Source: a virus. From it: a stretch of DNA of 64,000 nucleotides. Below the pieces are notes generated by a model. It was given only the letters and a program-made list of their open reading frames with translations, made no database searches and was not told where the DNA came from. The stretch lies in UHGV virus genome UHGV-0072281. One strand, written 5' to 3'. Made by a program: the position numbers and the translations under genes. Shown in pieces: positions 1,875-60,152 of the stretch. Each line of letters begins with the position of its first letter. Position 1 is the stretch's first letter.

Positions 1875-1894
1875 TTAAGTGAGATAGATATTAT
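1875..1894 (+). promoter_or_regulatory. candidate phage promoter elements upstream of the RNAP beta-like gene
   Basis: ttaagtgagat (1875-1885) is identical to 29144-29154. gatagatattat (1883-1894) is identical to 43890-43901. Both lie in a 63-nt divergent intergenic region. Confidence 0.4.
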
Positions 1895-1924
1895 CCTACC
1901 GAATCAACCTAAAGGAGCATTAAA

Positions 1925-4165
1925 ATGAAAACGCCAGTTGAGCTATTGAGCAGCGTCGCTGACCGTGAAGTCAATATCGCACAGGTATCAGGTGCAAGGG
2001 CATCGATGGTAGGTAACCATATGAAGTCCTCGGTCCCGATTGACCATCCTGAGCCGTCACCTCACTTTACGGGCGCAGATACCAATTACCACGATTTTCT
2101 GTTTAACGATATTGTGGAAGACAGTGGGAGCATCTGTCATTACACAACTAAGGAAGGTAGACAACGTCGTGCAACGTTTACCCGTTATGGTCGTCGTGGG
2201 GATTCCCGTGCGCTGGAACACGCGATATTCTTCCGTCGTGCAGAATGCCGTATTCCGGGCAAAACAATGATAGACGTTATCGAGATTAACTTTTATACTA
2301 ACCACGATAACGTGTTCTCTTCTGAGAAATGGGAATCACCAAAACTGCGTAGTTTGTTACGTGGTGAAACCGACCAGTTAGAAAAGGATGAAATCCTGAC
2401 GACGATGCCGTGCATGGTGGATGGTGAATTCGCAGACAGTGTGGTGCTGCCGACGGTTACCATCTCACACCCAGACATTATCGAGGATTCCTACACGATT
2501 TCCGAAGAAGCGGCACAGAAGCTTCACGGGTATGGGTTGAAGGTTATCGAGAAAACGTTGCGTGAAGACGAATTCTTACTGGATACCTACGGCTATAACG
2601 ATCCCGAGGGGAATCGTGTACCGCGCTATTTCCCAGACGTGGGTGAAGCGATTCGTGATGACGGGTTAGTTATCGCTTCTCGTCGTTTCGATGACCTGTA
2701 CGCAGCGATTGATGCAACCTTAGGGGAAACTCAACACGTTTCTCCGTTCTTCGATAGCTGTGATTACGTGGATGCCGATCCGATACACTATAAAGCACGT
2801 TTGGAAAACAACCACGAACTGATGGAACGTAGCGGAACGCGCATTGTTGATATTCAGGTTTGGCGTGATGAAACGTCGTGCGGTAATGGAACGAATAACA
2901 TTAACTGTACTGAAGAGAACAAACGTGAGCTTGACAAATACGCATTGGCGTTAAAGGACTACTACAATGCGATTGTTCGCTTCTATTTCTCCGTGTCGAG
3001 AGATAAAAACGTTATCTGGTCTCCCAAAGCGTGTGTGTTGCTGGAGAAAGCTTTTGCATCCGAAACGTACGAAGTCTACGCAGAGTTTCGTGAAGAAATT
3101 CGCGGGGTGATTGAAGATGCAATTCGTCGTGGCGAATACGGTAAAGAGAACGTAAGTCAACAGATTATCTCCAAATTGACTTCACCTGTTCAGCGTGGAT
3201 TAAGCGATCCCATCAATACGTACACAATTCGTATCGCGGTACGTTATCCGATCCCGGTGACGGTGTCTTCTAAGATTACCGACCGTTCGGGTACGAAAGG
3301 GATTGTGGGTCGTGTACTGCCAGTTGAACAGATGCCAATTAACGAGTTCGGCGAACGTGTTCACGTACTACGTTCAATGAACGCCGTAATTCGTCGTTCT
3401 ACCTACGCCGCGCTGTTCCACATGTATTGGTCAGCAGCATCTGAACAGCTGAAGATGCGTCTTAAACCGATGCTGGATGAAGGACGCATTGGTGAGTGTT
3501 GGGAAATCCTGATGGACTACCTTTCACGCTATAATCCAGAATGGGCGAACACGTTACAGGCTACGCATCCTACGGAGGATTTGCAGCGAGAACTCTTTAA
3601 AGAGATTTACGATTTCACCATCCGCATTTACCTACCTCACGAACTTGATGACACTCCGGTGGAAATCAGTGAACGTTTAGGTGAGTTTAAACCCCGTAAG
3701 TCGAAACTGCTTATTACCAATTACGATGGTAAACAGGAATGGACAAAAGACGAGTTTTACGTGGGTGGTGTAGAAACATTACGGCTTGATAAAACGGGAC
3801 GTGAATTCTCAAGTATTTCGTCGATGTACCTGAACTACCTGGGCACGATCGATGCGTCTAACCAAGGACGTGGTTCGTATCCGGTAAACTATAAAACGCT
3901 AAAATGGGCTGGTCCTTCGGAAGAACGACTATTAGCGGGTTATGGTCCAGGTAACTACGAAGAGGTTCACGATAGGGCAAATAACCCTGCTGTGCATCGA
4001 GAGATTTTAGTAGGGCTGTACCGATCTCAAACTCCTTCCAATCCGGGCGTACTGGTAGACCGGAATAAGCTCCCATTAGGAGATTCGCAGATTGACAGAA
4101 TGATGAAAAACATTCACAGCTGCGAAGGGTTTGAATTGGTGAAAATGAAAAGGGGCGAAGAATAA
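1925..4165 (+). CDS. RNA polymerase beta-subunit-like protein, C-terminal portion (split phage RNAP)
   Basis: By eye, IIEDSYTISEEAAQK resembles the bacterial beta N-x-EDS motif. KITDRSGTKGIVGRVLPVEQMP...VHVLRSMNAVIRRST aligns with GDKxAGRHGNKGVxSxxxPxEDMP...DIVLNPLGVPSRMN. Confidence 0.8.
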   Translation: MKTPVELLSSVADREVNIAQVSGARASMVGNHMKSSVPIDHPEPSPHFTGADTNYHDFLFNDIVEDSGSICHYTTKEGRQRRATFTRYGRRGDSRALEHAIFFRRAECRIPGKTMIDVIEINFYTNHDNVFSSEKWESPKLRSLLRGETDQLEKDEILTTMPCMVDGEFADSVVLPTVTISHPDIIEDSYTISEEAAQKLHGYGLKVIEKTLREDEFLLDTYGYNDPEGNRVPRYFPDVGEAIRDDGLVIASRRFDDLYAAIDATLGETQHVSPFFDSCDYVDADPIHYKARLENNHELMERSGTRIVDIQVWRDETSCGNGTNNINCTEENKRELDKYALALKDYYNAIVRFYFSVSRDKNVIWSPKACVLLEKAFASETYEVYAEFREEIRGVIEDAIRRGEYGKENVSQQIISKLTSPVQRGLSDPINTYTIRIAVRYPIPVTVSSKITDRSGTKGIVGRVLPVEQMPINEFGERVHVLRSMNAVIRRSTYAALFHMYWSAASEQLKMRLKPMLDEGRIGECWEILMDYLSRYNPEWANTLQATHPTEDLQRELFKEIYDFTIRIYLPHELDDTPVEISERLGEFKPRKSKLLITNYDGKQEWTKDEFYVGGVETLRLDKTGREFSSISSMYLNYLGTIDASNQGRGSYPVNYKTLKWAGPSEERLLAGYGPGNYEEVHDRANNPAVHREILVGLYRSQTPSNPGVLVDRNKLPLGDSQIDRMMKNIHSCEGFELVKMKRGEE

Positions 4166-6264
4166 TGAAGGCGACTCCGGTTCACGTAAGAGACTTGTGC
4201 AAGTTGAATTCGGATCAGGTGTGGCTACTTCGGGGCGTTTACGACGTGTCCTTCGACGATGGGGTCACGTTGAGAATGTCTGGTCGACACATTAAGTTGA
4301 GCTGGCCGTATTGGGGATTAACCCAGTTTTATCCCCAAGTGCCAATCTCGTCGAACATGGCGTATAAGCATGGCGACACGGCAACTGACGATGCGCATCT
4401 GCGCTTTATGTCGTTGGCAGCTGTAGCAGCACGTAAGGCCGGAGTGGATCTGGCCGATACCCGTTACCTGTTATCACAGCACGTTTATGCGAATGCGTTT
4501 AACCTGACGGTGAAAAACCTGTTGTCGTATTGTGTTACCATTGACTACGATACGATGATGGAGATTTATCAGCATGAAAACTTCAAGCTGATTATCGAAT
4601 GGTCTAAACTCTATCCGACGGGTTACGATGAGGAGGGTAACGATAAGGTAGAAGAAGCCTATCAGCTCATTGAGAAAATCTTCAAAGATCCGAGACTCTC
4701 AAACAACCCAGTCGTCATGTCTGTGTTAGACCGCACACTGAAAATGGATCAGATTCTCCAGGCTTACATTCGTGGTAAGACTTCAGAGATTGACTCCCGT
4801 GTGTACTCTAACCAGGTATGGGAAGGTTTCTTCACCGGCTTGCATTCTGTTATCAGTCGACTGAAAGAAGCAGGTGCGACATCGCGTTCTCACCTGTATA
4901 ACACCGACAAGATTGCAGACGCAGAGTACGCATCGCGTAAGTTGCAGTTAGCGGCTAACGTGCTGATGTTCTTCGATTACGAAGACTGTGGTACACATCA
5001 CGTACACAGACACACCTTTACGAATTCGCCGTTGGAAGAAGCGAAATTCAAAGCGATGAAAGGAATGCGTTATCGCTTCGAAGGTACTGGTGGTCCGTGG
5101 TTACGATTCGAAGATGGTGAGTTTGAGAAAGTCTTGAACAAACCTATCGAGTTCCGTACCGCGATGTGTTGCAAAGGAATGTCACGACAGACTATCTGTG
5201 CAACGTGTATGGGTGACTTGATTTATAACCTGTCACCTGGCACATCGCCGGGTCACCTTGCGTCAACCGCAATCTCGGAAAAGGGTACTCAAGGTATTCT
5301 GTCGACGAAACACCTTGACTTCCTGCGTTATCTGCTGAACTTGGTCTTGTCGCCAAGAATGCGTGATTATCTCACGGAGTATAAGCACAACTCCGTTAAA
5401 GGGATTAGTTTACTGGAGAAGCCGCAATACGGTACCTGGGATGAATACCAACTAGTAATTTCGGATGAAGTGTATTCAGAGATTAGCCAGATTGCGTATC
5501 ATGAAGACCTGGACGATATTGATGAAACGGCACTCCCGGAAATTAATGACCTTACGTTTGTTCGTTTAGATGCAGAAGGGAATATACTGGCAGAAGATCC
5601 GATTGACGTTCGAATGGGCGTGTGCGGTAACTTCTCTAAGTCGTTCCTTCGCTTCTTCTTGAAGAATCGTGATAAGCTCGTATTCCCCAGCAAGAAAACG
5701 GTGCGTGTTCCGCTAAAAGGATGGAAACCGTCCTGGCCGATCCTAATTTATACGAATCGGTCTGAATCTATGGCGGAGTTTGTAGCAGGGTTGGAATTGA
5801 TTTTACGTTCGGTAGCATCGGACAAGTCAGATAACTTCGAACAGTTCTCGGACGAGTCAATGCGTTTGAGCAAGAAGAGTGGTAAGGTTAAACCGATTAC
5901 CCTCGTTCAGATGCGTGGTGCCACGGAGAAACAATGTACTCATGCGTTGTTCTACGTGTTCAAATATATCCAACGTAAGCTCAAAGGGATTCCGATGACG
6001 CACATCGCGATTATGTTGGCAATCTCTCGTGTTGAGTCACCTACTAACCCATTCCCGGCAGTAGGGTTTGACAGTGAGGATGCTGATGCCGCAGAAGGAA
6101 AACGTTTCGAAGATCACAATACGCTGATTGCGATGCGTTCTGCAATTCCGATGTTGTTGTTTGAGGGACAACAGAAGAACTTGGACAACGTACGTTTCTA
6201 TACGTCACGTAAACGTCCTGCTTCGTTGTACGACAATTCTGTCGCGGCAACGATTATTGAGTAA
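4165..6264 (+). CDS. RNA polymerase beta-prime-like protein, C-terminal portion (bridge helix to trigger loop and beyond)
   Basis: YEDCGTHH, CATCMGD and ISEKGTQGILSTKHLDF align by eye with beta-prime EDDCGT, CxxCYG and GEPGTQLTMRTFH. The ATG overlaps the stop of the beta-like gene (ATAATG). Confidence 0.75.
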   Translation: MKATPVHVRDLCKLNSDQVWLLRGVYDVSFDDGVTLRMSGRHIKLSWPYWGLTQFYPQVPISSNMAYKHGDTATDDAHLRFMSLAAVAARKAGVDLADTRYLLSQHVYANAFNLTVKNLLSYCVTIDYDTMMEIYQHENFKLIIEWSKLYPTGYDEEGNDKVEEAYQLIEKIFKDPRLSNNPVVMSVLDRTLKMDQILQAYIRGKTSEIDSRVYSNQVWEGFFTGLHSVISRLKEAGATSRSHLYNTDKIADAEYASRKLQLAANVLMFFDYEDCGTHHVHRHTFTNSPLEEAKFKAMKGMRYRFEGTGGPWLRFEDGEFEKVLNKPIEFRTAMCCKGMSRQTICATCMGDLIYNLSPGTSPGHLASTAISEKGTQGILSTKHLDFLRYLLNLVLSPRMRDYLTEYKHNSVKGISLLEKPQYGTWDEYQLVISDEVYSEISQIAYHEDLDDIDETALPEINDLTFVRLDAEGNILAEDPIDVRMGVCGNFSKSFLRFFLKNRDKLVFPSKKTVRVPLKGWKPSWPILIYTNRSESMAEFVAGLELILRSVASDKSDNFEQFSDESMRLSKKSGKVKPITLVQMRGATEKQCTHALFYVFKYIQRKLKGIPMTHIAIMLAISRVESPTNPFPAVGFDSEDADAAEGKRFEDHNTLIAMRSAIPMLLFEGQQKNLDNVRFYTSRKRPASLYDNSVAATIIE

Positions 6265-27785: not shown

Positions 27786-29048
27786 ATGGCGAATTTCTAC
27801 AAAAACAAAATTGCTCGTGAGTCAATGGAAGCGAACTCTACTGTCGTTCCAGATGGTATTGAGCTGCCAGCAGAGTCTATCGAAGGTACTCTGGCTGATA
27901 TCGAGCACGACACTAAACCGATCGAAGCGCTGGACGCTGACGCAGAGCTGCTGGCGGAAGACGGCGACGAAACCGATGCGCAGCTGGACGTTCTGGACGA
28001 AGCTCAGGCTTCCGCTGACGGCGAAGGTGGTGAAGATGGCGACGATCAGATGGACGCTGAAGAAGACATGCCGGACGACGCTGCTAAAGCGCTGGATGTT
28101 GCTCAGGAATCCATCCGTTCTCGCTGGAACTTCGAACACCGTTCTTCCGTTGCTCACGAATCTTACGGCGCTCGTAACCGTCGTCAGGTTGCTCGTGAAT
28201 CCCTGTGGGACGACATTAAAGCCTTCCTGAAACGTTTCTGGGAATGGCTGAAAGAGCAAGGCCGCAAACTGAAAGATCGTTGGCTGAAATTCCACAACCA
28301 GGGTAAATCTATCCAGGCTCGTGCGAAGAAATACGACGAAGCTATTCGTAAACTGGGCAAACAGAAGAAAGATGAAATCTCCGGTGGTTTCATCAAGTGC
28401 CTGTCTGTTGACGGTAAGTTCGTTGGTAACGATGTACCACGTCTGAAAGACGCGATGAGCCGTGTTTCTTCTTTCTACAGCAAACACGTTCCAACTCTGC
28501 TGGCTTCTGGTACCGCTCTGGTTGCAGACGTATCCAAAGCTAACGGTGCTCAGGCTGAGCAACTGCGTGCTGAATTTGCTGCGCTTTCTAAAGAAGATGG
28601 CGACAAAGAATTCCGCCTGGGCAACATGGTTATGCAGACCAACTTCGATGAAGATGGTGGCTTTAGCTTCACTCACGTTGAAGCAGAAAATGCTGTTGAA
28701 ACCAGCGTGAAAACTCCGTCTGTAAGCGAACTGGCTAAACTGAACGGTTTCTTCACCGATCTGGGTAAACAGATTGAGAAGAACGTTCTCGAATACCGTA
28801 AGACCGAGCAGGCTCGTGAGAAGTTCGCTCAGTCTATCGAGAAACTGCTGAAAGAAATCGATAACGTCAAGATCGATGAAAAACCAGAACTGACTGAAGG
28901 CGTACGTGTTGCACGTCGCTATGTTAACAGCATTCGCAGCGCAGTATCCCTGTGCGAGAAAGTTGTTGCTTCTGCTCAGAAAAACCTGGTTAGCGGCGTT
29001 AGCGGTTATATCAGCGCCGGTATCGCAGCGTACGAAAAGTCTAAGTAA
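27786..29048 (+). CDS. abundant paralogous protein 2, putative processed head/internal protein
   Basis: Shares MANF..ARESMEA, VAQESI..RWN, RAKKY..RKLGKQK.D.ISGGFI, VKTPSVSE and AYEKSK with 26434-27705. Codon bias is strong. Confidence 0.85.
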   Translation: MANFYKNKIARESMEANSTVVPDGIELPAESIEGTLADIEHDTKPIEALDADAELLAEDGDETDAQLDVLDEAQASADGEGGEDGDDQMDAEEDMPDDAAKALDVAQESIRSRWNFEHRSSVAHESYGARNRRQVARESLWDDIKAFLKRFWEWLKEQGRKLKDRWLKFHNQGKSIQARAKKYDEAIRKLGKQKKDEISGGFIKCLSVDGKFVGNDVPRLKDAMSRVSSFYSKHVPTLLASGTALVADVSKANGAQAEQLRAEFAALSKEDGDKEFRLGNMVMQTNFDEDGGFSFTHVEAENAVETSVKTPSVSELAKLNGFFTDLGKQIEKNVLEYRKTEQAREKFAQSIEKLLKEIDNVKIDEKPELTEGVRVARRYVNSIRSAVSLCEKVVASAQKNLVSGVSGYISAGIAAYEKSK

Positions 29049-29068
29049 TCGTTGATTATTTAGCGTAG

Positions 29069-29113
29069 AATCACCCCGCGATGCGGGGTGATTTCTTTTT
29101 TCTTTTTTTTTTT
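29069..29113 (+). terminator. intrinsic terminator
   Basis: aatcaccccgc-gat-gcggggtgatt hairpin followed by a long T-run. Confidence 0.9.
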
Positions 29114-29126
29114 CGATTAAAAATAA

Positions 29127-29153
29127 TTTCAGATATATATTACTTAAGTGAGA
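29127..29153 (+). promoter_or_regulatory. candidate phage promoter (AT-rich, TATATTAC-containing)
   Basis: tttcagatatatattacttaagtgaga matches 37382-37408 at 26 of 27 positions. It lies just after a terminator and upstream of a gene, and is followed by the inverted repeat gagattac-aca-gtaatctc. Confidence 0.6.
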
Positions 29154-29203
29154 TTACACAGTAATCTCTTTACGACTTGTTTATTACGTTTAGGAGAAAT
29201 ATC

Positions 29204-29845
29204 ATGAGCCGCATTAATTTAACTGATTTTGTTGATGGTGTTGTAACTTTAGAAAGCAAAGGCGCGACCTTAGTTGCTCCGAATGCCAAAGTGCTGGATT
29301 TAAATCCTGTAGAAGTGATTGCTATTTCTACTTGGTTACGTTTGTCTTACGACAAGAAATTCGAAGGGTTAGAGAAAGAATCTCTAACTGTCAATACTCG
29401 TGAGTTTGTCTTTAAAGAAATCGACAGCGAAAAATTGGAAGCTTTCTCAAAACAGATGGTTAATCCACGTACAGACGGTGATGTCGGTATGCGCGAATAC
29501 AGTGGTGAAAAATACCATGCGTTTACTGATGCCCATGTTGCGTTGTGTGAGAAAGGTGAAGGGAGATTCGTTGCTGTTTGTTTCTTCCATTTAATCGCGC
29601 CGAAACAGAAAGATTTGCTGTTTGAAATCGCGAAGGATTCGGCAGAAGCGGTTATGGATACGATTGTTGAACTTTTCGAAGCGATGCGTGATATTCCGCG
29701 TGTGTTAGAAGTAAGTGAGGGACCTATGGATAGCTTTAAAATTCTACCATTGATTTATAGTAAGGACCATGAAGAGGAATGTACATTCGTCCTGTTCAAT
29801 GGTTCGATGGCTGCGTCTGTAAAACAGTTCGCTGCATCCATTTAA
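29204..29845 (+). CDS. hypothetical protein (about 213 aa)
   Basis: ATG 29204 is preceded by TAGGAGAA. The track start TTG 29177 has no SD. Confidence 0.75.
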   Translation: MSRINLTDFVDGVVTLESKGATLVAPNAKVLDLNPVEVIAISTWLRLSYDKKFEGLEKESLTVNTREFVFKEIDSEKLEAFSKQMVNPRTDGDVGMREYSGEKYHAFTDAHVALCEKGEGRFVAVCFFHLIAPKQKDLLFEIAKDSAEAVMDTIVELFEAMRDIPRVLEVSEGPMDSFKILPLIYSKDHEEECTFVLFNGSMAASVKQFAASI

Positions 29846-29850
29846 ATACA

Positions 29851-29879
29851 AAGCCCTCCGTAGAGGGCTTTTATTTTTT
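29851..29879 (+). terminator. intrinsic terminator
   Basis: aagccctc-cgta-gagggctt hairpin followed by ttattttttc. Confidence 0.8.
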
Positions 29880-29899
29880 CGACCTTTAGGAGAATAGAA

Positions 29900-30451
29900 A
29901 TGAACAAATTTAATATCTTAGACGCTAAAATCGTATCCGAGTCTTCTATTCAGCAAGAAATCTTTCGTGTTCAGTTCGGCGAGAAAGTTCTGAATATCCC
30001 ACGTCCCGTTATGATTGGCTTAGCGATATTCGTTAACAACAGCCATTGCAACGGTTCGGCGTTGTCAGTTCTTGAGTACGGTGACTATCAGTTTTATATT
30101 CCAGAGCATCTCGAGTATAACCGTTTTATTGAACTTAAACCGTTCTATAAATTCATGCTTGATGCAGGGTATTCGATTCTAACCAAAACGTATATTCGTG
30201 ACTACTCGAAGTTAGAATCTTTCTATCGTGCCCGTGGTCTTCGTGTCCCGCAACCGTTTGACGGATACCAGACCCGCGTTGTGTTAACTGCGCCGTTAAC
30301 GAAAGAACTGGCTTCCTATAAACTGGATATCGAGCAGAAACTACTGCGTGACGACTTACTGAAAATCTATAACCAGTTGTCCGTGGTACCTTCTTCAACT
30401 GTCTCGAACATTGAACCAGAGTACGGAATAAGACAATACAAGGAAGGTTAA
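29900..30451 (+). CDS. hypothetical protein (183 aa)
   Basis: ORF with TAGGAGAA upstream of the ATG. Confidence 0.75.
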   Translation: MNKFNILDAKIVSESSIQQEIFRVQFGEKVLNIPRPVMIGLAIFVNNSHCNGSALSVLEYGDYQFYIPEHLEYNRFIELKPFYKFMLDAGYSILTKTYIRDYSKLESFYRARGLRVPQPFDGYQTRVVLTAPLTKELASYKLDIEQKLLRDDLLKIYNQLSVVPSSTVSNIEPEYGIRQYKEG

Positions 30452-30452
30452 G

Positions 30453-30758
30453 ATGAAACCGAGAGCCGACCGAGTAGACGTAATACATTTTGAAGAGTGT
30501 GAAACCGAGTATCAGGTTAAACGCACTGATTTACGTTTAGTTATTCCTAAGCTAAACGAACCTGAGTGGAACGGCGAGCTGATGGTACCGCTTGCCGAAC
30601 CAATTAAAACGGGGACAGGCGAGATTAATTATCTCCATTTAGAAGCCGCCGGACGCAAAGTAACCGTTTGGCATCTTGCTGACGGTTACAAAACCAGTCA
30701 GCTTACACGTAAAGCATTTATTCGGAAATTAAGAAAGTCGACGGGAGTTGTGAAATGA
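30453..30758 (+). CDS. hypothetical protein (101 aa)
   Basis: ORF with AAGGAAGG upstream. It is coupled to the DHFR gene (ATGA overlap). Confidence 0.7.
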   Translation: MKPRADRVDVIHFEECETEYQVKRTDLRLVIPKLNEPEWNGELMVPLAEPIKTGTGEINYLHLEAAGRKVTVWHLADGYKTSQLTRKAFIRKLRKSTGVVK

Positions 30759-31291
30759 CAGTTACTGTATCTTTGATTGCGGCAGCGGGACTTAATAATG
30801 AAATAGGGAAAGACAATAAACTCCCTTGGCATATTCCCGATGACTTGAAGAACTTCAAAGCACTTACGTCAGGTAAGGTTATTGTGATGGGACGTAAGAC
30901 GTGGGAGTCTTTGGGATGTAAACCTTTACCAAACCGACATCATTTTGTGCTAACAAGAAAGCCTGATGATTTGCCCACAATGAAAGGGGTAATTTATTCT
31001 AAAGGTAAAATGGAAGCGTTTATTGAATTTCTCAAAATAACGATCAAGGAAAAAGATTTTCCCAAGGAAATTTTTATCATCGGGGGCGCAGAAATTTACC
31101 GCCAGGCGTTGCCATATGCGGATAAGATCTATCTGTCGCGCGTAGAAGCTAAAGTTGACGGTGCGGATGCGTTCTTTCCTGAAATCGATCGCGATGAGTT
31201 TAAATTGGTTTATAACTTAACGCACTGCTCGAAACCAGAAAGTGGTATTCCGCGTTGGCATTATCAGATTTGGAAAAGAGATGGGCACTGA
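30755..31291 (+). CDS. folA: dihydrofolate reductase
   Basis: SLIAAAGLNNEIGKDNKLPWHIPDDLKNFKALTSGKVIVMGRKTWESLG..PLPNRHHFVLTR closely follows the FolA N-terminal pattern (ISLIAAL...MPW.LP.DL..FK..T....VIMGR.TWESIG.PLPGR.NI.L). Confidence 0.95.
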   Translation: MTVTVSLIAAAGLNNEIGKDNKLPWHIPDDLKNFKALTSGKVIVMGRKTWESLGCKPLPNRHHFVLTRKPDDLPTMKGVIYSKGKMEAFIEFLKITIKEKDFPKEIFIIGGAEIYRQALPYADKIYLSRVEAKVDGADAFFPEIDRDEFKLVYNLTHCSKPESGIPRWHYQIWKRDGH

Positions 31292-31577
31292 GTTTGTAAC
31301 CTTAGAAAAACTCTTTTTAGGCAGCGTCGCGAAAGGGAAGATAGCCAGTTTCACTTGGAACCGCACTCCCGTAAAATACGCGTTTCTACGTCGTTTACAC
31401 TACGAGAAAAGCATCAAGCTGGTCTTGGTCGTGTTGTTCGAAAACAAGCGTGGATTGTTGATTAATAATCATCGTTTTGCGGCGGAGATCTGGGCGACCA
31501 CATCTGGCGGCGAGGAAGCATCTGTTGGCTTTGCTAACGATGAGGTTATCTTTGAGGGTATACCTTATCTGTTATAG
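31281..31577 (+). CDS. hypothetical protein (about 98 aa)
   Basis: ATG 31281 overlaps the DHFR stop (ATGGGCACTGA). The track start GTG 31242 is less likely. Confidence 0.6.
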   Translation: MGTEFVTLEKLFLGSVAKGKIASFTWNRTPVKYAFLRRLHYEKSIKLVLVVLFENKRGLLINNHRFAAEIWATTSGGEEASVGFANDEVIFEGIPYLL

Positions 31578-31590
31578 CACAGATAAACGT

Positions 31591-31625
31591 AAAAGGGGAC
31601 TTCGGTTCCCTTTTATTTTTTTTTC
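31591..31625 (+). terminator. intrinsic terminator
   Basis: aaaaggggac-ttcg-gttccctttt hairpin with a UUCG loop, followed by a T-run. Confidence 0.8.
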
Positions 31626-36386: not shown

Positions 36387-36418
36387 GTTATGTCGACAGC
36401 AACCTAAAGGATTTGTTA

Positions 36419-37219
36419 ATGAGCAATTTACTTACTTTCCGCATGTCTGGTCAAACGTTAATGCAGATTGACGAGTACGAAAAAGAACATTTCGCTAAAC
36501 CGTCCAAACTGTTAGAACGTTGCTTAAAGGTTATTCCAGGCGGCGAGCACTGTCAGCTAGATTTCGTCATGGCGTCTTCTGCTGACAAAACGGTCTCTGT
36601 TATCTACACGGTTGACGGAGTACAGGGCCATCGCTTATTACCGATTGAAGAAAAAGGTTCTTTGGGTAATTTGTTGTTCTTGCACGCAATCACGACTGCG
36701 GTAGTGACGGGAGCACTGGGAGCGCAGTACGGTTTCGCCTATTGTTATTTCTACGCACAGAAGTTGGCGAATGCGGTAGTTCCAGGAGAACCAGAAACGT
36801 ATCCGAAGTATATCGAACGTTTGCTTCCGACGCATTTTGCTGAGTCTGACGACTATGAGTTCAATGCTTTCCGTTTCACGATGATTGGCGAAGCACGCGA
36901 TCCTGAAAACACCATTGCGTTACGTGCTGTTGTTCGTTACGCAGTAATTTCGTCTGACAGCGGAATGGCAAGCAACTTCAACGAAGTGTTCCCGGTTATG
37001 CAACTAGGTCCGTATATCACGTTTAACGCGTATGTACCGTTTACTTGTCAGTTAATCGGCCCGCAGGATAATGATTCTATCCTCCCGATTACTGAAGAGA
37101 AAGGTCTACATATTCGTGATGCCGTAGAAGTCATCAACGATAAACGTTTTACGATCTCATCGAAAAGCGGCATCGCCGATGAAGAACTTGCGGTTGTGAA
37201 CAAAATGCAAGTGATGTAA
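36419..37219 (+). CDS. hypothetical protein (about 266 aa)
   Basis: ATG 36419 is preceded by AAAGGA. The track start TTG 36413 is less likely. Confidence 0.7.
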   Translation: MSNLLTFRMSGQTLMQIDEYEKEHFAKPSKLLERCLKVIPGGEHCQLDFVMASSADKTVSVIYTVDGVQGHRLLPIEEKGSLGNLLFLHAITTAVVTGALGAQYGFAYCYFYAQKLANAVVPGEPETYPKYIERLLPTHFAESDDYEFNAFRFTMIGEARDPENTIALRAVVRYAVISSDSGMASNFNEVFPVMQLGPYITFNAYVPFTCQLIGPQDNDSILPITEEKGLHIRDAVEVINDKRFTISSKSGIADEELAVVNKMQVM

Positions 37220-37223
37220 AATT

Positions 37224-37263
37224 ATCCCGTTACCCACAAAGGTAACGGGATGTCCTTTTATTT
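37224..37263 (+). terminator. intrinsic terminator
   Basis: atcccgttacc-cacaaa-ggtaacgggat hairpin followed by gtccttttattt. Confidence 0.8.
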
Positions 37264-37381
37264 ACTCGTAAACGCGTCTTAGACGCTGTTTTACACCTTA
37301 AGACGATTAATGGTGTTTAAAAAATAAAAGGTCGTCAGAATGCGATACAGCGCGTTTTAGAGGGTGTTTTAATTAAAATAT

Positions 37382-37408
37382 TTTCAGATATATATTACTT
37401 AGGTGAGA
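37382..37408 (+). promoter_or_regulatory. candidate phage promoter (second copy of the TATATTAC element)
   Basis: tttcagatatatattacttaggtgaga matches 29127-29153 at 26 of 27 positions. The A/T-rich upstream flank is similar, and the palindrome attacgtaat follows downstream. Confidence 0.6.
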
Positions 37409-37455
37409 GAATTACGTAATACTCATTTATCGTATACCTAATTAGGAGCTATATC

Positions 37456-37599
37456 ATGATTTCTGTAAAACACAAAAAAGCTATCTTCGCTGTTGTTATC
37501 GCTGTTGTTCTGGGTTGCCTGTACCTGGATATCGACAAAGGCTACGACACTTGCATCGACAACGGTAATTCCGTTGCGCAGTGCACTGGTCGTGGTTAA
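37456..37599 (+). CDS. small membrane protein (47 aa), not in the ORF track
   Basis: MISVKHKKAIFAVVIAVVLGCLYLDIDKGYDTCIDNGNSVAQCTGRG. It has TAGGAG upstream, one hydrophobic helix and a UUCG-loop terminator immediately after. Confidence 0.6.
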   Translation: MISVKHKKAIFAVVIAVVLGCLYLDIDKGYDTCIDNGNSVAQCTGRG

Positions 37600-37604
37600 T
37601 GTAT

Positions 37605-37634
37605 AAGGCACCTTCGGGTGCCCTTAATTTTTTT
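37605..37634 (+). terminator. intrinsic terminator
   Basis: ggcacc-ttcg-ggtgcc hairpin followed by a run of 7 T. Confidence 0.8.
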
Positions 37635-38474: not shown

Positions 38475-38518
38475 ACCCCTAATCCCGAAAAGGATTAGGG
38501 GTACACTTTATTTATTTT
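38475..38518 (+). terminator. intrinsic terminator
   Basis: acccctaatcc-cgaaaa-ggattaggggt hairpin followed by a T-rich tail. Confidence 0.8.
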
Positions 38519-38541: not shown

Positions 38542-38697
38542 ATGAGAAATGTTAATGCAATGCTTAACCAGGCATTTGTTAACCAACAGCGTTTTCAGGA
38601 ACGCTTAGCACAACTTAAAACACAACACAGACCACCACAACAAAGAGTGGTTAAGAGCAAGTTCGGCGAAATGGTTTTCGAAAGAAAATCTTTCTAA
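38542..38697 (+). CDS. small basic Gln/Asn-rich protein, paralog 1 of 3 (51 aa), not in the ORF track
   Basis: MRNVNAMLNQAFVNQQRFQERLAQLKTQHRPPQQRVVKSKFGEMVFERKSF. It has AAAGGA upstream and a terminator hairpin after it, and shares ERL...FERKS with its neighbours. Confidence 0.55.
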   Translation: MRNVNAMLNQAFVNQQRFQERLAQLKTQHRPPQQRVVKSKFGEMVFERKSF

Positions 38698-38847: not shown

Positions 38848-39015
38848 ATGTTCGACAGTATTACACAAATTTTTAACACTACCGTAAACAATCACGCTCA
38901 GCAAGCGAAGTTTAATGAACGATTAAGGGAAGTTCAACAATTAGGATTAAATAAAAGATTAAAATCTTCCAATAATCCTCGAGTACAGATCTTCACCGAA
39001 AGGAGAAGTAACTGA
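38848..39015 (+). CDS. small basic Gln/Asn-rich protein, paralog 2 of 3 (55 aa), not in the ORF track
   Basis: MFDSITQIFNTTVNNHAQQAKFNERLREVQQLGLNKRLKSSNNPRVQIFTERRSN. It has AGAGG upstream and shares QLG.NKRLK.S.N...QI.TE.RS with paralog 3. Confidence 0.6.
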   Translation: MFDSITQIFNTTVNNHAQQAKFNERLREVQQLGLNKRLKSSNNPRVQIFTERRSN

Positions 39016-39111: not shown

Positions 39112-39285
39112 ATGAACAATGGTTACTACTTTACTGACAAAATGCTTGCAGAACAATATGCAGCAAAAACCAATTTACAGCAACGTATCTACGAGTATAG
39201 TCAACTCGGTGCGAATAAACGATTAAAACCATCAACCAACCGTTTCACACAGATAATCACTGAAAAAAGGAGTGAACGCTACTAA
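39112..39285 (+). CDS. small basic Gln/Asn-rich protein, paralog 3 of 3 (57 aa), not in the ORF track
   Basis: MNNGYYFTDKMLAEQYAAKTNLQQRIYEYSQLGANKRLKPSTNRFTQIITEKRSERY. It has AGAGGG upstream and is followed by a hairpin at 39294-39315. Confidence 0.6.
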   Translation: MNNGYYFTDKMLAEQYAAKTNLQQRIYEYSQLGANKRLKPSTNRFTQIITEKRSERY

Positions 39286-41533: not shown

Positions 41534-43819
41534 ATGAAAGATACCCGAATCTCTAATTTAGAGAAACTCGTAGAAGCCGGTACTAGTCTGGCCCAAAACG
41601 TCATCGGCAACAACACCGCCAGCGAAATGTGGAAGACGATTGTTGCAGGCGAGTCCGTACGTAGCAACGCAAAAGTATTTGGCGCTCTGCGTGACGAAGC
41701 ATCACAGCACTATGCCAACGCTTTTGGCGGCAAGAAAATGTCTCATGCTGCGACCGTCGCTTCCGCAATGATTCTGGGCGTAGCTAACCACGGTAAAGAC
41801 CTGCAAGAACGTGTTGCCCAGGAATACGCTAAGCCGGAATTCCACACCAAGTATAACCTGGATATTGGTATCCCTGGTGCGCAAGGTGGTGATTGGGGTC
41901 GTGAGCGTATGGTTGTTGCTCAGGAATACTACAGCAACAAAGACTACGACAAAAACTTGGGCCTGACCTGGACCCTGAACGTACGTGCTCTGGAAACTCA
42001 GTCCAAGTTTGCTGAAACACTGTTCCCGACCATTACCGTTGACACCAACGATGTTGGTATTACCGTACGTACTAAAGTGACTACCGTTTCTCGCGGTATC
42101 ATGAACGCGCTGCTGAGCAAAGACGTCGTTGAAGATCATCGTCGTCCGCTGCACAACGCACTGACTGACCACACCGTTCTCCAGGACGAAGCGATCAACA
42201 TCGTTCCTTACGTAATGGAAACCGGTGAAAACCAGGAATACTTCGTAAGCGAAGATCTGGTTCCGAACGAAAAAGTTCGCCTGGGTCGTGTACCTCCGTA
42301 TCCGACTAACTACCTGAGCTTTGCAAACGACACGCTGAACCTGTTCCAGCTGTCTGCGCATCCGGGTATCGTTCAGGAAGGTTACGATGAAACTGATGAA
42401 ATCGCACCGGGTTGTGCTCTGGGCAGCCTGCTGATTTCTGTACGTAAACCGGCCGAAGAAGCGAAAGCGGGTAAATTCATCAAACTGCACGTTCGTGACA
42501 TGCAGTTCGCAACCTTCCAGCGTCCTGCTGAAGGTGACGGCCGTGAACTGGTTCTGCAATTCCGTCGTACCGCGTTCTCTCTGAATGCGAAAACCACTGA
42601 CTGGAAAGGCGACGCTATTCCGGCACTGCAAGCACTGGGCCAGAACTCCTACACCCTGCGCTACGTTATCACCATCACCATGTCCCTGTTCACCAGCGGC
42701 CAGTTCGGTGGTAAAGTAGACATTTCCGGCCACAAACTGGAAATCGAAGGTCTGTACGATGCAACTGGTAACAAAGTTGATACCAAGTCTGGTACCGGCA
42801 AAGTTATCCTGGATGGCCTGAAACTCGAACTGATGGGCTGGCGCTTCGATGGTACTCGTACCAACGAAAACCGTCGTACCCAGGGTCTGCTGCTTGACCC
42901 AATTTGGGAACAGGAAAACTACAAACTGCAATACGGTTCTCCGATTCTGACCAAGTCTCCGGTTGGTGTTGAATACGACGACACTGAACGTCTGGATGAC
43001 CTGATCTCTGCGGTGAACATCCGTAACGAACAGCTGGCTATTACTCAGACGCTGTCTTACACTGAAGCAGTACGTAACGCAGCCGCTGCGATGATCACTC
43101 CGTGGGACAAACCGGCTATCCGTGGTCTGGGCCGTCACTGGGTTGCTCCGTGGTTCAAAGAGTCTGACTACAAAGTCGATGAAGTTGTTCAGTCTCTGGA
43201 TACCAAAGAAGCGCTGATCAACGCTCGTCAGGGTCTGTTGCAGCGTATCGGTAGCCAGGTAACTCAGGCTATCCAGGATTCTCGTTTCATTCCTGCACTG
43301 CGCCTGCTGACCGCTGATCCGGACATTCTTCCGAAAGTTATTATCGCAACTGACGAACCGACTGCATCCATGCTGCTGCTGGTTCAGGGCGACCAACGTC
43401 TGCTGGGCGACCGTTATGAATACGAAGTCGTTACCACCAACGATGACCGCTGGCGTATCTACAACGCAGCTGACGATTCCTGGACTCGTCGTCTGCAATG
43501 GTTCCTGAAAGTTCCGACTGCGGACGATGGTTCCTACTGCGTACTGAACTGGGGTAACCACTTCTGGTCTCCGATCATGGTTACCAACATCAACATTCAG
43601 CGTAACGGTTCTACTTCTAAAGAACTGGCTGTACAGCCGCGTAACGCGCATATCTGCCACTGCCCGATCACTGGTCTGATTTGGGTTAAAGGCATCACCA
43701 AACTGGTTGAAGAAAAACTGGCTTACAACGTTTCTGTAGAACAGAACGGCCAGAAACAAACCGAAGGTGGTGTAGCAGGTAACCTTGCTGTCGAAGGCAA
43801 AGCTACCGCTGGTAAATAA
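41534..43819 (+). CDS. putative major capsid protein precursor
   Basis: 761-aa ORF with the strongest codon bias in the window (685-codon stop-free antisense frame) and a strong terminator after it. The N-terminal part contains AGE-S and two AQE-Y sites matching the S/A/G-x-E cleavage rule recalled for phiKZ-type prohead proteases. The size is similar to what I recall for phiKZ-type capsid proteins. Confidence 0.55.
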   Translation: MKDTRISNLEKLVEAGTSLAQNVIGNNTASEMWKTIVAGESVRSNAKVFGALRDEASQHYANAFGGKKMSHAATVASAMILGVANHGKDLQERVAQEYAKPEFHTKYNLDIGIPGAQGGDWGRERMVVAQEYYSNKDYDKNLGLTWTLNVRALETQSKFAETLFPTITVDTNDVGITVRTKVTTVSRGIMNALLSKDVVEDHRRPLHNALTDHTVLQDEAINIVPYVMETGENQEYFVSEDLVPNEKVRLGRVPPYPTNYLSFANDTLNLFQLSAHPGIVQEGYDETDEIAPGCALGSLLISVRKPAEEAKAGKFIKLHVRDMQFATFQRPAEGDGRELVLQFRRTAFSLNAKTTDWKGDAIPALQALGQNSYTLRYVITITMSLFTSGQFGGKVDISGHKLEIEGLYDATGNKVDTKSGTGKVILDGLKLELMGWRFDGTRTNENRRTQGLLLDPIWEQENYKLQYGSPILTKSPVGVEYDDTERLDDLISAVNIRNEQLAITQTLSYTEAVRNAAAAMITPWDKPAIRGLGRHWVAPWFKESDYKVDEVVQSLDTKEALINARQGLLQRIGSQVTQAIQDSRFIPALRLLTADPDILPKVIIATDEPTASMLLLVQGDQRLLGDRYEYEVVTTNDDRWRIYNAADDSWTRRLQWFLKVPTADDGSYCVLNWGNHFWSPIMVTNINIQRNGSTSKELAVQPRNAHICHCPITGLIWVKGITKLVEEKLAYNVSVEQNGQKQTEGGVAGNLAVEGKATAGK

Positions 43820-43883: not shown

Positions 43884-43911
43884 TTTTCGGATAGATATTA
43901 TTAAAGAGAGA
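43884..43911 (+). promoter_or_regulatory. candidate phage promoter (weaker variant)
   Basis: tttttcggatagatattattaaagagaga. Its core gatagatattat is identical to 1883-1894 and similar to gatatatattac at 29132 and 37387. Confidence 0.4.
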
Positions 43912-43937: not shown

Positions 43938-43988
43938 ATGGAAAAATTACAGTTAAAACTAAAGATATGTACCATTATTAAAACTTAA
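43938..43988 (+). CDS. 16-codon upstream ORF with a strong SD (possible leader peptide)
   Basis: TAAAGGAGAG lies 4 nt upstream of the ATG, and the ORF encodes MEKLQLKLKICTIIKT. It stops 12 nt before ATG 44001, which has no SD of its own. Confidence 0.35.
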   Translation: MEKLQLKLKICTIIKT

Positions 43989-44000
43989 TCTGGCCCTTAC

Positions 44001-45011
44001 ATGAACCGTCTTGATATTGATGTGGTACCCAGTGTTACTGACCGCTCGTTGTATCAAAAGTCAGGACTACAAAAACTCATCACTTTTGAGAATAATACTG
44101 GTGTGCCAATTTACGTCACTGAAACCAGTGGCGGTAGCTTTATTTTAACTCCGTCCAAAAGCACGGCTGATGAGCATGGGGTTGTTGTTTATGTAACGTA
44201 TCAATCGTTCGGAAATCTGGCTAACCTGAACGGGTTTGCAGAAGTCTTACCAGAAAAACAATTCACTAAATTTTGTGCAGATTTAAAGGAGAAAGGAGAG
44301 GTCACACTCCGATACGTCGTCGACGATATCGGTGCTTTATTACGTGGGGACTTGGTTGTATTGAAGCAGTTAGGATTTGCATTTTCAATTACACCAGTTC
44401 GATTAGAAAGTACACCACCGAGTGTAAGGCCAGGAGGTGAGAGAACTGAATTTACATTGGGTGTTATTGTTGTGCAGCGTTACGACGATCCCGAATTATA
44501 TCGTTGGATTAGATTCTACGGAACGCGCATGGAAGTACAACCGATTCTATCGCGGTATTACGAACCGGGTGTGTACATGGTAATAGGAGGAGGAGACAAA
44601 GTAGAAGGGAGCAGGATGATTCACTTTGAGTTCGATGACTTATTGTCACCGTTCCGTGTTTTTAAAGATAAAGAAACAGCCACTGCGTTTCGATGGCAAG
44701 AAACGTTACCGGATATTCACGAGATAAAGGAAAAGCTGGAAAGTCAATACAGAGAAAAATTAGAAAGTTTGGATTCGGCAAAAGACAAACTGGAATTAGA
44801 ACACAAAAAACAACTACAGAATTTGGCTTTAGAAAAGGAGCGTTTGACTCTAGCGTATAAACAACAAGAACTAGAAGCAAAGTCTCGGGCAGAGGCACGA
44901 AAAGAATTCTACGAGACTCGTTCTTACATTCGTAAAGATGGGTCAGACCTATTTAAATCAGTCCCTGCGTATCTGGCGGCGGGTGTCGCATTTATAGGGA
45001 TGCTAAAGTAA
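44001..45011 (+). CDS. hypothetical protein (336 aa) with a C-terminal coiled coil and a terminal hydrophobic anchor
   Basis: Contains the heptad-like stretch KEKLESQYREKLESLDSAKDKLELEHKKQLQNLALEKERL and ends in VPAYLAAGVAFIGMLK. Confidence 0.7.
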   Translation: MNRLDIDVVPSVTDRSLYQKSGLQKLITFENNTGVPIYVTETSGGSFILTPSKSTADEHGVVVYVTYQSFGNLANLNGFAEVLPEKQFTKFCADLKEKGEVTLRYVVDDIGALLRGDLVVLKQLGFAFSITPVRLESTPPSVRPGGERTEFTLGVIVVQRYDDPELYRWIRFYGTRMEVQPILSRYYEPGVYMVIGGGDKVEGSRMIHFEFDDLLSPFRVFKDKETATAFRWQETLPDIHEIKEKLESQYREKLESLDSAKDKLELEHKKQLQNLALEKERLTLAYKQQELEAKSRAEARKEFYETRSYIRKDGSDLFKSVPAYLAAGVAFIGMLK

Positions 45012-59597: not shown

Positions 59598-60152
59598 ATG
59601 AAAGAATATAGAATTGCGATCATCGGGTCTCGAGAAACGCCAGAAGACGTTATGCAGGAAATGTTAGAAACGTTACGGGAAGGGTTTCGAATCTTACGAA
59701 AGAAAGGCTATACGATTACCACCCGTTCTGGCGGGTGTTATAAAGGACCAGACCAACTTCAGTTTATGTTAGCACGCACAGAGGACGTTAAGAGCGTTTG
59801 TTACCTGCCGGATGAAAAGAAAATGTGGTTAGGGAAAATACACCCTAAGGTAGAGTTCCGTTATATCGCACAAGACGTTCAGTACCGCGCAATCGTTGCT
59901 TCACTTCACCCAAACCCAGATAAGCTCTCGCCGATTGCCTGGGCGTTACACGGGCGTAATCTGAATATCATCGCAGGGGATTGTTTAGACGAGCCGGTAG
60001 ACACAGTATATTACTTTAGCGACCACGACAAACACGGGAACGCAAAAGGTGGCACCGCAATGGGTGTGAAATACGCGAAGTCAATCGACGTTCCTTGTTA
60101 TTATCATACCACCGATCGGGATAAGTGGTTGGAAAGCCTTCGTTTATTATGA
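59598..60152 (+). CDS. DprA/SLOG-like Rossmann-fold protein (about 184 aa)
   Basis: RIAIIGSRETP...TTRSGGCYKGPDQ...GGTAMGV resembles the DprA/Smf-LOG pattern (vaVVGSR...SG.A.GID...GGT). ATG 59598 is preceded by GGAGGTG. Confidence 0.4.
   Translation: MKEYRIAIIGSRETPEDVMQEMLETLREGFRILRKKGYTITTRSGGCYKGPDQLQFMLARTEDVKSVCYLPDEKKMWLGKIHPKVEFRYIAQDVQYRAIVASLHPNPDKLSPIAWALHGRNLNIIAGDCLDEPVDTVYYFSDHDKHGNAKGGTAMGVKYAKSIDVPCYYHTTDRDKWLESLRLL

Follow-up and report, generated by a model that had tools for sequence, protein, structure and literature searches.

In a stretch of 64,000 nucleotides (nt) of viral DNA, UHGV-0072281 (hereafter the window), a 27-nt element occurs in two near-identical copies, each followed by an inverted repeat. 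The two copies are predicted to be early promoters of the class read by the virion RNA polymerase (RNAP) of the phiKZ family: their match to this class is confirmed, and their function is deduced from homology. For the reading as a whole, namely that the elements are phiKZ-like virion-RNAP early promoters and that the transcribed repeat becomes a 5′-terminal stem-loop, likely a shield of the 5′ end, we think the chances are good. What we infer is where exactly transcription starts, that it is early, that it depends on the virion RNAP and what the hairpin does. The window belongs to a new jumbo phage of the enterobacterial SPN3US/Erskinevirus-like group. The promoter class is known and well described, and a specialist would expect to meet it in an SPN3US-like phage; a lead of modest interest is the hairpin, which is enriched in the clade and linked to the strongest promoters.

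Two copies of the element

The element, TTTCAGATATATATTACTTA[A/G]GTGAGA, lies on the + strand at 29127-29153 (copy 1) and 37382-37408 (copy 2), the single difference being an A at 29147 against a G at 37402. These coordinates are those of a first-pass annotation of the window, which had pointed out the pair and its one mismatch. No other match exists in the 64-kb window when up to three mismatches are allowed, and none of 100 dinucleotide-preserving shuffles contained any match. The annotation was also right about a common A/T-rich upstream flank: ATTAAAA stands 11 nt (copy 1) and 10 nt (copy 2) upstream of the 27-mer, and 8 of 12 bases of the two flanks are identical in a fixed register. Both copies precede plus-strand genes, at 29204 and 37456, each with an AGGAG ribosome-binding site (RBS), and both follow terminators, as it had said, with gaps of about 12 nt (copy 1, from the end of a stem at 29068-29094 plus T-run) and 130 nt (copy 2) where it had given 15-120 nt. 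The terminator in front of copy 1 insulates the promoter from upstream transcription.

Each 27-mer contains the octamer TATATTAC, at 29136-29143 and 37391-37398, or -14 to -7 of the predicted start. The annotation had named this octamer as the phiKZ early-promoter consensus, and correctly so: the phiKZ early promoter is given as TATATTAC (PMC7058600 Table 2), in agreement with our scan of the phiKZ genome. Alone, the octamer is not significant in the window (3 found vs 1.75 expected), and its third occurrence, at 60007, is intragenic and has no flanking blocks; thus the signal is carried by the full element. In copy 1 this comprises the AT-rich block GATTAAAAATAA, with A at -34, T at -32 and AAA at -30 to -28, followed by TTTCAG at -23 to -18, TATATTAC at -14 to -7 and TTAAGT at -6 to -1. 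Further copies, for which the annotation had proposed a search, were sought in the 64-kb window with a degenerate consensus and then with a position weight matrix (PWM), and two weaker ones were found, at 43885 (copy 3) and 1878 (copy 4).

Match to the phiKZ-family promoter class

The window sequence TTTCAGATATATATTACTTAAGTGA fits almost base for base both the early consensus of 201phi2-1, ...TTTRARR_BTATATTACDWHDGTG (PMC7058600), and the extended consensus of N1M2/OBP, ...TTTCARRYAKATATTATYWAAGTGWA, with 31 sites in N1M2 (PMC7058600). Conservation at -10, -20 and -30 has been described for the early promoters of 201phi2-1 and phiKZ (PMC11512511), and according to a review, a motif of this kind, centred near -10, precedes the early operons of every jumbo phage that encodes RNAPs (PMC7598289). 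The AR9 early consensus is AAATATATATTAT-(6N)-G+1, and transcription in phiKZ and phiR1-37 also starts 6 nt downstream of the element (PMC5312081).

A scan of the phiKZ genome returned 17 strict sites, all on the + strand, one of them before gp68 (a subunit of the non-virion RNAP, nvRNAP) and another being the nearest upstream of gp54, the nuclear shell protein. When 70 sites from the clade of the window and 7 phiKZ sites were placed in one register, their logos agreed at T-32, AAA at -30 to -28, TTT at -23 to -21, A-19, the -14 to -7 block, T-1 and G+1. The G 6 nt after the -10 block and the T at -1 are present in 70/70 clade sites and 17/17 phiKZ sites, the G column having been part of the search models. 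This common register with the phiKZ sites leads to predicted starts at G29150 and G37405; the 6-nt spacing was taken from PMC5312081 and from the invariant G in the phiKZ genome.

The genome has the equipment that such promoters call for, since both polymerases are encoded: homologues of gp71-73 and gp74 for the nvRNAP and of gp80 for the virion RNAP. According to the accepted model, the injected virion polymerase transcribes the early genes, nvRNAP subunits among them (PMC13282480); copy 4, which is 24 nt upstream of the nvRNAP genes, fits this model. Other features also tie the window to phiKZ and its relatives. The 761-amino-acid (aa) capsid protein is a PhiKZ-type major capsid protein (PhiKZ_MCP, PF25620, E=5e-207), and the gene order is as in phiEaH2 and phiKZ, running from internal head proteins through small genes with DHFR and an opposite-strand DnaB helicase to the major head protein. 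At the DNA level, a 4-kb stretch around copy 1 is about 74% identical to the Erwinia phages phiEaH2, Asesino and Stratton and to SPN3US-like Salmonella phages, and the best identity of the capsid gene to any sequenced phage is only 83%. A close relative is found among metagenomes: IMGVR_UViG_3300045988_078609, a viral contig of 224,831 bp in IMG/VR, is 96.6% identical over 944 nt around copy 2, and this near-complete genome is publicly available.

Copies in related phages

The complete phiEaH2 genome contains 19 matches at up to 5 mismatches and 22 by matrix. All sites are oriented with the coding strand (4/4 in the window, 22/22 in phiEaH2), and nearly all are upstream of an RBS and a start codon. 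Those at 223771, 233323 and 241268 are syntenic with window copies 1-3, and that at 195754 with copy 4. Copy 3, which comes directly behind the terminator of the gene for the major capsid protein (41534-43819), has a positional counterpart in phiKZ as well, at 120657, between the capsid gene and gp121. The exact 20-mer TTTCAGATATATATTACTTA was found at 20 loci on about 12 jumbo-phage contigs, including phiEaH2 and SPN3US. For most of these contigs, a promoter island of 40-95 nt is the sole DNA that can be aligned to the window, which argues for selection on the element itself and not for recent duplication.

Two arrangements in phiEaH2 deserve mention in their own right. The match at 116300, which scores 37.3 and has a short hairpin at +1, is within the coding sequence annotated as gp142, so that either it is an internal promoter or the annotation of gp142 needs revision. 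At 182309 and 182400, two promoters stand in tandem 91 nt apart upstream of gp204 (618 aa), beside an RNAP subunit gene, an arrangement that resembles the one at the phiKZ nuclear-shell gene. No claim is made that gp204 is a chimallin, as phmmer against PDB, PHROGs, Pfam and BLASTP against PHIKZ054 all gave no match.

A probable stem-loop at the predicted 5′ end

In copy 1, the repeat, GAGATTAC-ACA-GTAATCTC, constitutes the first 19 nt of the predicted transcript and folds into an 8-bp hairpin of -8.2 kcal/mol (p=0.005 vs shuffles). The inverted repeats that the first-pass annotation had described do exist, at somewhat different coordinates: 29150-29168 in place of 29149-29167, and, for copy 2, GAGAATTACGTAATACTC at 37407-37424 with the perfect palindrome ATTACGTAAT at 37411-37420. 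Its suggestion that the leader would begin with a hairpin can be kept in so far as the repeat starts at the predicted +1, the structure exceeds that of shuffles and the arms covary; it fares worse for copy 2, whose RNA hairpin is weak. The specific ATTAC...GTAAT that it saw in both window copies had to be given up as a motif, because it is not conserved in relatives, whose stem sequences are unrelated, and the shared pentamer looks coincidental.

How general is this structure? It was assessed at 70 non-redundant sites, many of which are orthologues, so that nominal p-values overstate independence. The mean minimum free energy (MFE) of +1 to +30 was -3.95 kcal/mol, compared with -1.97 for dinucleotide shuffles (Wilcoxon p=2e-5) and -1.77 for the segment from +21 to +50 (p=5e-6), and 37% of the leaders were individually significant. 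Forty leaders reached -3 kcal/mol or lower, with pairing from +1 in 29 of them, where +1 is the predicted start and the fold was begun there. The effect is concentrated in strong promoters: at a score of at least 39 the MFE was -5.17 vs -1.80 (p=4e-7), with 62% individually significant, and below 39 it was -2.79 vs -2.13 (p=0.56). Structure is also more pronounced in the leaders of promoters with C at -7 than where this base is T. As a separate observation, the weak flavour GATAGATATTATC (window 1883-1895; phiEaH2 32854, 241268 and 242220) has an internal GATA-N5-TATC, which the strong flavour ATATATATTAC does not have; together with the difference in hairpins, this hints at two promoter sub-classes.

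A test that does not depend on folding gave a concordant result. The +1 to +9 segment of a site pairs with its own leader over a mean of 6.1 consecutive bases, compared with 4.6 +/- 0.2 when segments of other sites are used; the observed mean was reached in 0/5000 permutations, and 13 different 5′-arm heptamers are represented. Among the orthologues of copy 2, which have a clean 6-bp helix, GAGAGA...TCTCTC is replaced by GAACGA...TCGTTC around the same loop through two compensatory pairs, G-C to A-U and A-U to C-G, and 88.9% of positions pair, compared with 47-61% when the partners are slid. Across sites the stem varies from 4 to 9 bp and the loop from 3 to 15 nt. Folds of the sense strand are more stable than those of the antisense strand (p=0.012), and G-U accounts for 20/182 stem pairs, both of which favour an RNA structure over a symmetric DNA site. 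Covariation, tolerance of G-U and strand specificity thus point, at the level of sequence comparison, to a leader structure conserved by pairing and not by sequence. No part of the window matched Rfam at the gathering threshold.

Weighing the evidence

Several points weigh against the reading given above, in addition to the orthology of many of the 70 sites. In the literature on SPN3US-like phages we found no mapped start, timing or polymerase dependence. Copies 1 and 2 sit among late structural genes, and the genes downstream of them are without known early function. The hairpin of copy 2 is poor: its best RNA fold is -1.5 kcal/mol (p=0.6), it no longer keeps to the ancestral register, its palindrome would need a loop in order to fold, and copy 2 accounts for all four cells without pairing in the alignment of orthologues. 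The position of the helix is also less sharp than the first folds implied. Because these folds began at +1 and could have forced an apparent anchoring there, the leaders were refolded from -20 and -12; the 5′ arm still peaked at +1 to +5, with a pairing probability of about 0.73 at -2/-1. The helix can extend 1-6 nt into the promoter in 17/31 strong sites with a defined helix, and it extends as far as -3 in six of the strong sites and to -6 in four, which exceeds the expectation for chance extension. The repeat therefore straddles the predicted start in many sites, and no sharp +1 boundary is claimed; the upstream part of the repeat would be outside the transcript, since the predicted +1, if right, lies downstream of it. 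The straddling may mean that the true start is slightly different, that DNA matters, or that the hairpins arose by inverted duplication of promoter-proximal sequence.

The phiKZ leaders, moreover, are not structured overall (-1.86 vs -1.49, p=0.89), with a +1 hairpin at 3/17 sites. The hairpin is thus a clade-enriched addition and not part of the definition of the promoter class, and the idea of a leader hairpin as a family-wide feature was rejected. In the open-access papers and reviews on jumbo-phage transcription that were searched, we found no early transcript described as having a hairpin in its 5′ leader. As to function, 5′-terminal stem-loops are known in mRNAs of E. coli and other enterobacteria and provide an analogy for stabilisation. 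The putative stabilising role draws only on this analogy and on one negative result of little weight, in that tblastn detected no homologue of Dip (PHIKZ037), the degradosome inhibitor of phiKZ; the lack of a detectable homologue is only weakly suggestive of a role in 5′-end protection.

Could the repeat be a DNA operator, at which a dimeric phage-encoded regulator binds across the start and shuts off or times the strongest early promoters? The first-pass annotation had offered such a site as an alternative, and the straddling, down to -3 to -6, the 10-bp palindrome of copy 2, perfect as DNA and unable to fold as RNA without a loop, and a gene for a helix-turn-helix DNA-binding protein directly behind one phiEaH2 promoter copy would all suit it; early transcription, besides, needs some switch-off. 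However, the sequence of the arms varies widely (the 13 heptamers), stems and loops of such variable length are incompatible with fixed half-sites and spacing, the compensatory changes keep pairing and not sequence, and the G-U pairs and the greater stability of the sense strand point to RNA, so that an operator is disfavoured and we regard it as unlikely. The same G-U pairs, which would be A-C mismatches on the other DNA strand, speak against a repeat that acts as DNA in promoter recognition or escape, for example as a hairpin of the non-template strand loosely like that of N4. Complementarity reaches into -6 to -1 at several sites, and the repeat co-occurs specifically with the promoters of strongest consensus and C at -7, as such a role might predict. 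Yet the phiKZ early promoters have the same core and mostly no repeat, so that this polymerase family does not require it to recognise a promoter. In N4 the hairpins precede the start and serve a single-subunit enzyme that is unrelated; here the repeat is at or after +1, which is the wrong side for such a hairpin, and the polymerase genes encode multisubunit enzymes. This possibility seems to us barely credible.

The 27-mer itself has been considered in two other ways. It might be a host sigma-70 promoter read by the bacterial RNAP, with TATATT as the -10 hexamer: TATATT matches TATAAT in 5/6 positions, TCGATT or TTTAAT stands 17 nt before it, TTGATT occupies the -35 position in some relatives, and the region is AT-rich and upstream of genes. 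The best score is, however, 8/12 in both copies, with only 3/6 in the -35 hexamer, and neither copy appeared in the output of a consensus scan; the most conserved positions (TTTCAG at -23 to -18, A-29, T-1 and G+1) fall in what would be spacer and discriminator, which are not conserved in sigma-70 promoters, and phiKZ-like phages develop independently of the host RNAP (PMC13282480; PMC7598289). The sigma-70 reading was rejected on the weak scan and the explicit scoring, and we hold it to be very improbable. Alternatively, the copies might be portable recombination cassettes like the PeSL of T4-type phages, made near-identical by gene shuffling or conversion and not by selection on promoter strength. 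Each copy does form a module of terminator, promoter, small gene and terminator, phiEaH2 retains the promoter of copy 1 and the later genes of the unit but has, at the corresponding position, no homologue of the first gene, and the promoter is often the sole alignable island between genomes. But the identity is confined to the positions that define the phiKZ and AR9 promoters and decays just outside them, which indicates functional constraint, and the 20-mer does not vary between genomes whose coding DNA is only about 74-83% identical. Recombination is compatible with promoter function as an extra role, not as a replacement for it, and it leaves the position-specific conservation unexplained; as the source of the near-identity it appears quite unlikely.

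Proposed mechanism

On the reading that we prefer, phiKZ-like early promoters with a 5′-terminal stem-loop, events would be as follows. Each 27-mer would be the core, -23 to +4, of an early promoter, read by a multisubunit RNAP that the virion carries and injects together with the DNA. The enzyme would recognise three blocks, AAA near -30, TTT(C)A near -20 and TATATTAC at -14 to -7, and would start at the invariant G six bases past the last block, that is, at G29150 and G37405. Each copy would head a short, terminator-bounded cassette of accessory genes: copy 1 an operon for a 213-aa protein, two small genes and DHFR, and copy 2 a gene for a 47-aa membrane protein. The repeat would be transcribed as the first ~20 nt and would fold into a stem-loop at the very 5′ terminus of the mRNA, which might shield the strongest early messages from 5′-end-dependent decay by RppH and RNase E in the enterobacterial host. 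Protection of the mRNA 5′ end is our best guess for the role of the hairpin, by analogy with the enterobacterial stem-loops mentioned above.

A more specific idea, which we put forward tentatively and consider somewhat doubtful, is that the strongest promoters of the clade make up a sub-class, with C at -7 of TATATTAC and an obligatory stem-loop as a functional module of immediate-early mRNAs. In such a sub-class the hairpin might shield messages from RppH/RNase E, or from RNA-targeting defences, before phage countermeasures exist; alternatively, it might be a mark by which mRNAs are handled once they have been made in the early infection vesicle. In phiKZ the same problem would then have another solution.

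The analysis provides a usable early-promoter model for a clade of jumbo phages of Salmonella, Erwinia and E. coli, consisting of a positional consensus, predicted starts and the copies listed for the window and phiEaH2. The model helps to annotate early host-takeover genes and offers parts for engineering these phages. If the proposal for the hairpin is true, the early messages of an injected polymerase carry a built-in 5′ structure, and the hairpin is a simple genetic handle on how phages protect or route their first mRNAs.

Organization of the window

The features of the window that bear on the promoters are collected in Table 1.

Table 1. Coordinates of promoters, leaders, terminators and genes in the window
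Feature	Position	Strand	Remarks
Intrinsic terminator, 12-bp stem 29068-29094 plus T-run	29068-29114	+	Ends internal-head-protein gene 27786-29048
Promoter copy 1, -35 to -1	29115-29149	+	PWM 52.4 vs shuffled maximum 15.7
Predicted start G29150 and 5′-terminal stem-loop GAGATTAC-ACA-GTAATCTC	29150-29168	+	Start position inferred from PMC5312081
Transcription unit behind copy 1	29192-31577	+	RBS AGGAG 29192-29196, ATG 29204
First gene of copy 1 unit, 213 aa	29204-29845	+	No known family
Leaky-looking terminator in copy 1 unit	29850-29871		
Further genes of copy 1 unit	29900-30451, 30453-30758, 30755-31291, 31242-31577	+	30755-31291, DHFR; 31242-31577, open reading frame (ORF)
Terminator closing copy 1 unit	31589-31616		
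Bidirectional terminator-like hairpin	37223-37252		After gene 36413-37219; 130 nt upstream of copy 2
Promoter copy 2, -35 to -1: TAATTAAAATAT, TTTCAG, TATATTAC, TTAGGT	37370-37404	+	PWM 50.0
Predicted start G37405 and imperfect inverted repeat GAGAGAATTACGTAATACTC	37405-37424	+	
One-gene cassette behind copy 2	37444-37622	+	RBS AGGAG 37444-37448, ATG 37456, terminator 37607-37622
Predicted membrane protein behind copy 2, 47 aa	37456-37599	+	
Promoter copy 3, degenerate: TTTCGGATAGATATTATTAAAGA, then G43908	43885-43907	+	PWM 39.0
Promoter copy 4, weakest: AGTGAGATAGATATTATCCTACC, then G1901	1878-1900	+	PWM 24.1 vs shuffled maximum 15.7
nvRNAP subunit genes (PHIKZ071-073, PHIKZ074 homologues)	1925-6264	+	E=1.1e-30, 7e-33
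Virion RNAP subunit gene (PHIKZ080 homologue)	12221-13522	+	27% identity, E=8e-48

For the first gene behind copy 1 no homologue was detected in phiEaH2 or phiKZ, in contrast to the promoter and the three genes that come next, DHFR among them, which are conserved; a gene seems to have been replaced here just behind a promoter that was kept. Homology of the copy 1 operon to PHIKZ001-004 was considered and rejected, DHFR being the sole match. Behind copy 3, a 16-codon ORF, MEKLQLKLKICTIIKT, with a strong RBS lies at 43938-43988, between the promoter and the gene at 44001. At its place phiEaH2 has a full gene, gp262, with another promoter copy after it; the short ORF may be what is left of a gp262-like gene, or else a leader peptide.

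Two hairpins, at 37223-37252 and 38475-38502, score as intrinsic terminators on both strands and are candidate bidirectional terminators. Downstream of the latter are three small paralogous ORFs of 51, 55 and 57 aa (38542-38697, 38848-39015 and 39112-39285), with terminator-like hairpins between them. They have the motif ...ERL..QLG.NKRLK...TE(R/K)RS in common, a likeness at the protein level only, and a search of the small ORFs at 38.5-39.3 kb for direct repeats in the DNA gave none.

Comparison with known systems

The closest likeness is to the virion-RNAP early promoters of the phiKZ-like (Chimalliviridae) jumbo phages phiKZ, 201phi2-1, OBP/N1M2 and AR9, with which the elements have in common the blocks at -30, -20 and -10, the spacing to an invariant G and the T at -1. 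As in this class, there are tens of copies per genome, co-oriented with genes, at the starts of operons after terminators; copies stand before the non-virion RNAP genes and after the major capsid gene, and both polymerases are encoded. The clade of the window differs in its extended consensus, TTTCAGATATATATTACTTA(A/G)GTGA, in a second flavour, GATAGATATTAT, with T at -7, and in the covarying stem-loop that follows the strongest copies at the predicted +1, a feature of only 3/17 sites in phiKZ.

With the leaders of the ompA type and of T7 gene 10, the likeness is a hairpin within ~2 nt of the 5′ end of the message (predicted, in our case) whose pairing is conserved and whose sequence is not. 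Here, however, the repeat sometimes reaches upstream of the predicted start, and the stabilising effect is putative, by analogy with those leaders. In the open-access literature we found no description of a 5′ stem-loop linked to one class of virion-polymerase promoter.

The PeSL of T4-type phages are similar in that a repeated intergenic unit, a terminator-like stem-loop plus an early promoter, flanks small variable genes. Their promoters are host sigma-70 promoters with the stem-loop upstream, whereas the promoter here is specific for a phage polymerase and an extra hairpin is downstream, in the leader. The virion RNAP promoters of N4, finally, also combine an injected virion polymerase with an inverted repeat at early promoters, but the N4 hairpin is an upstream DNA recognition element for a single-subunit polymerase, whereas linear AT-rich blocks, a multisubunit polymerase and a repeat at or after the start characterise the system described here.

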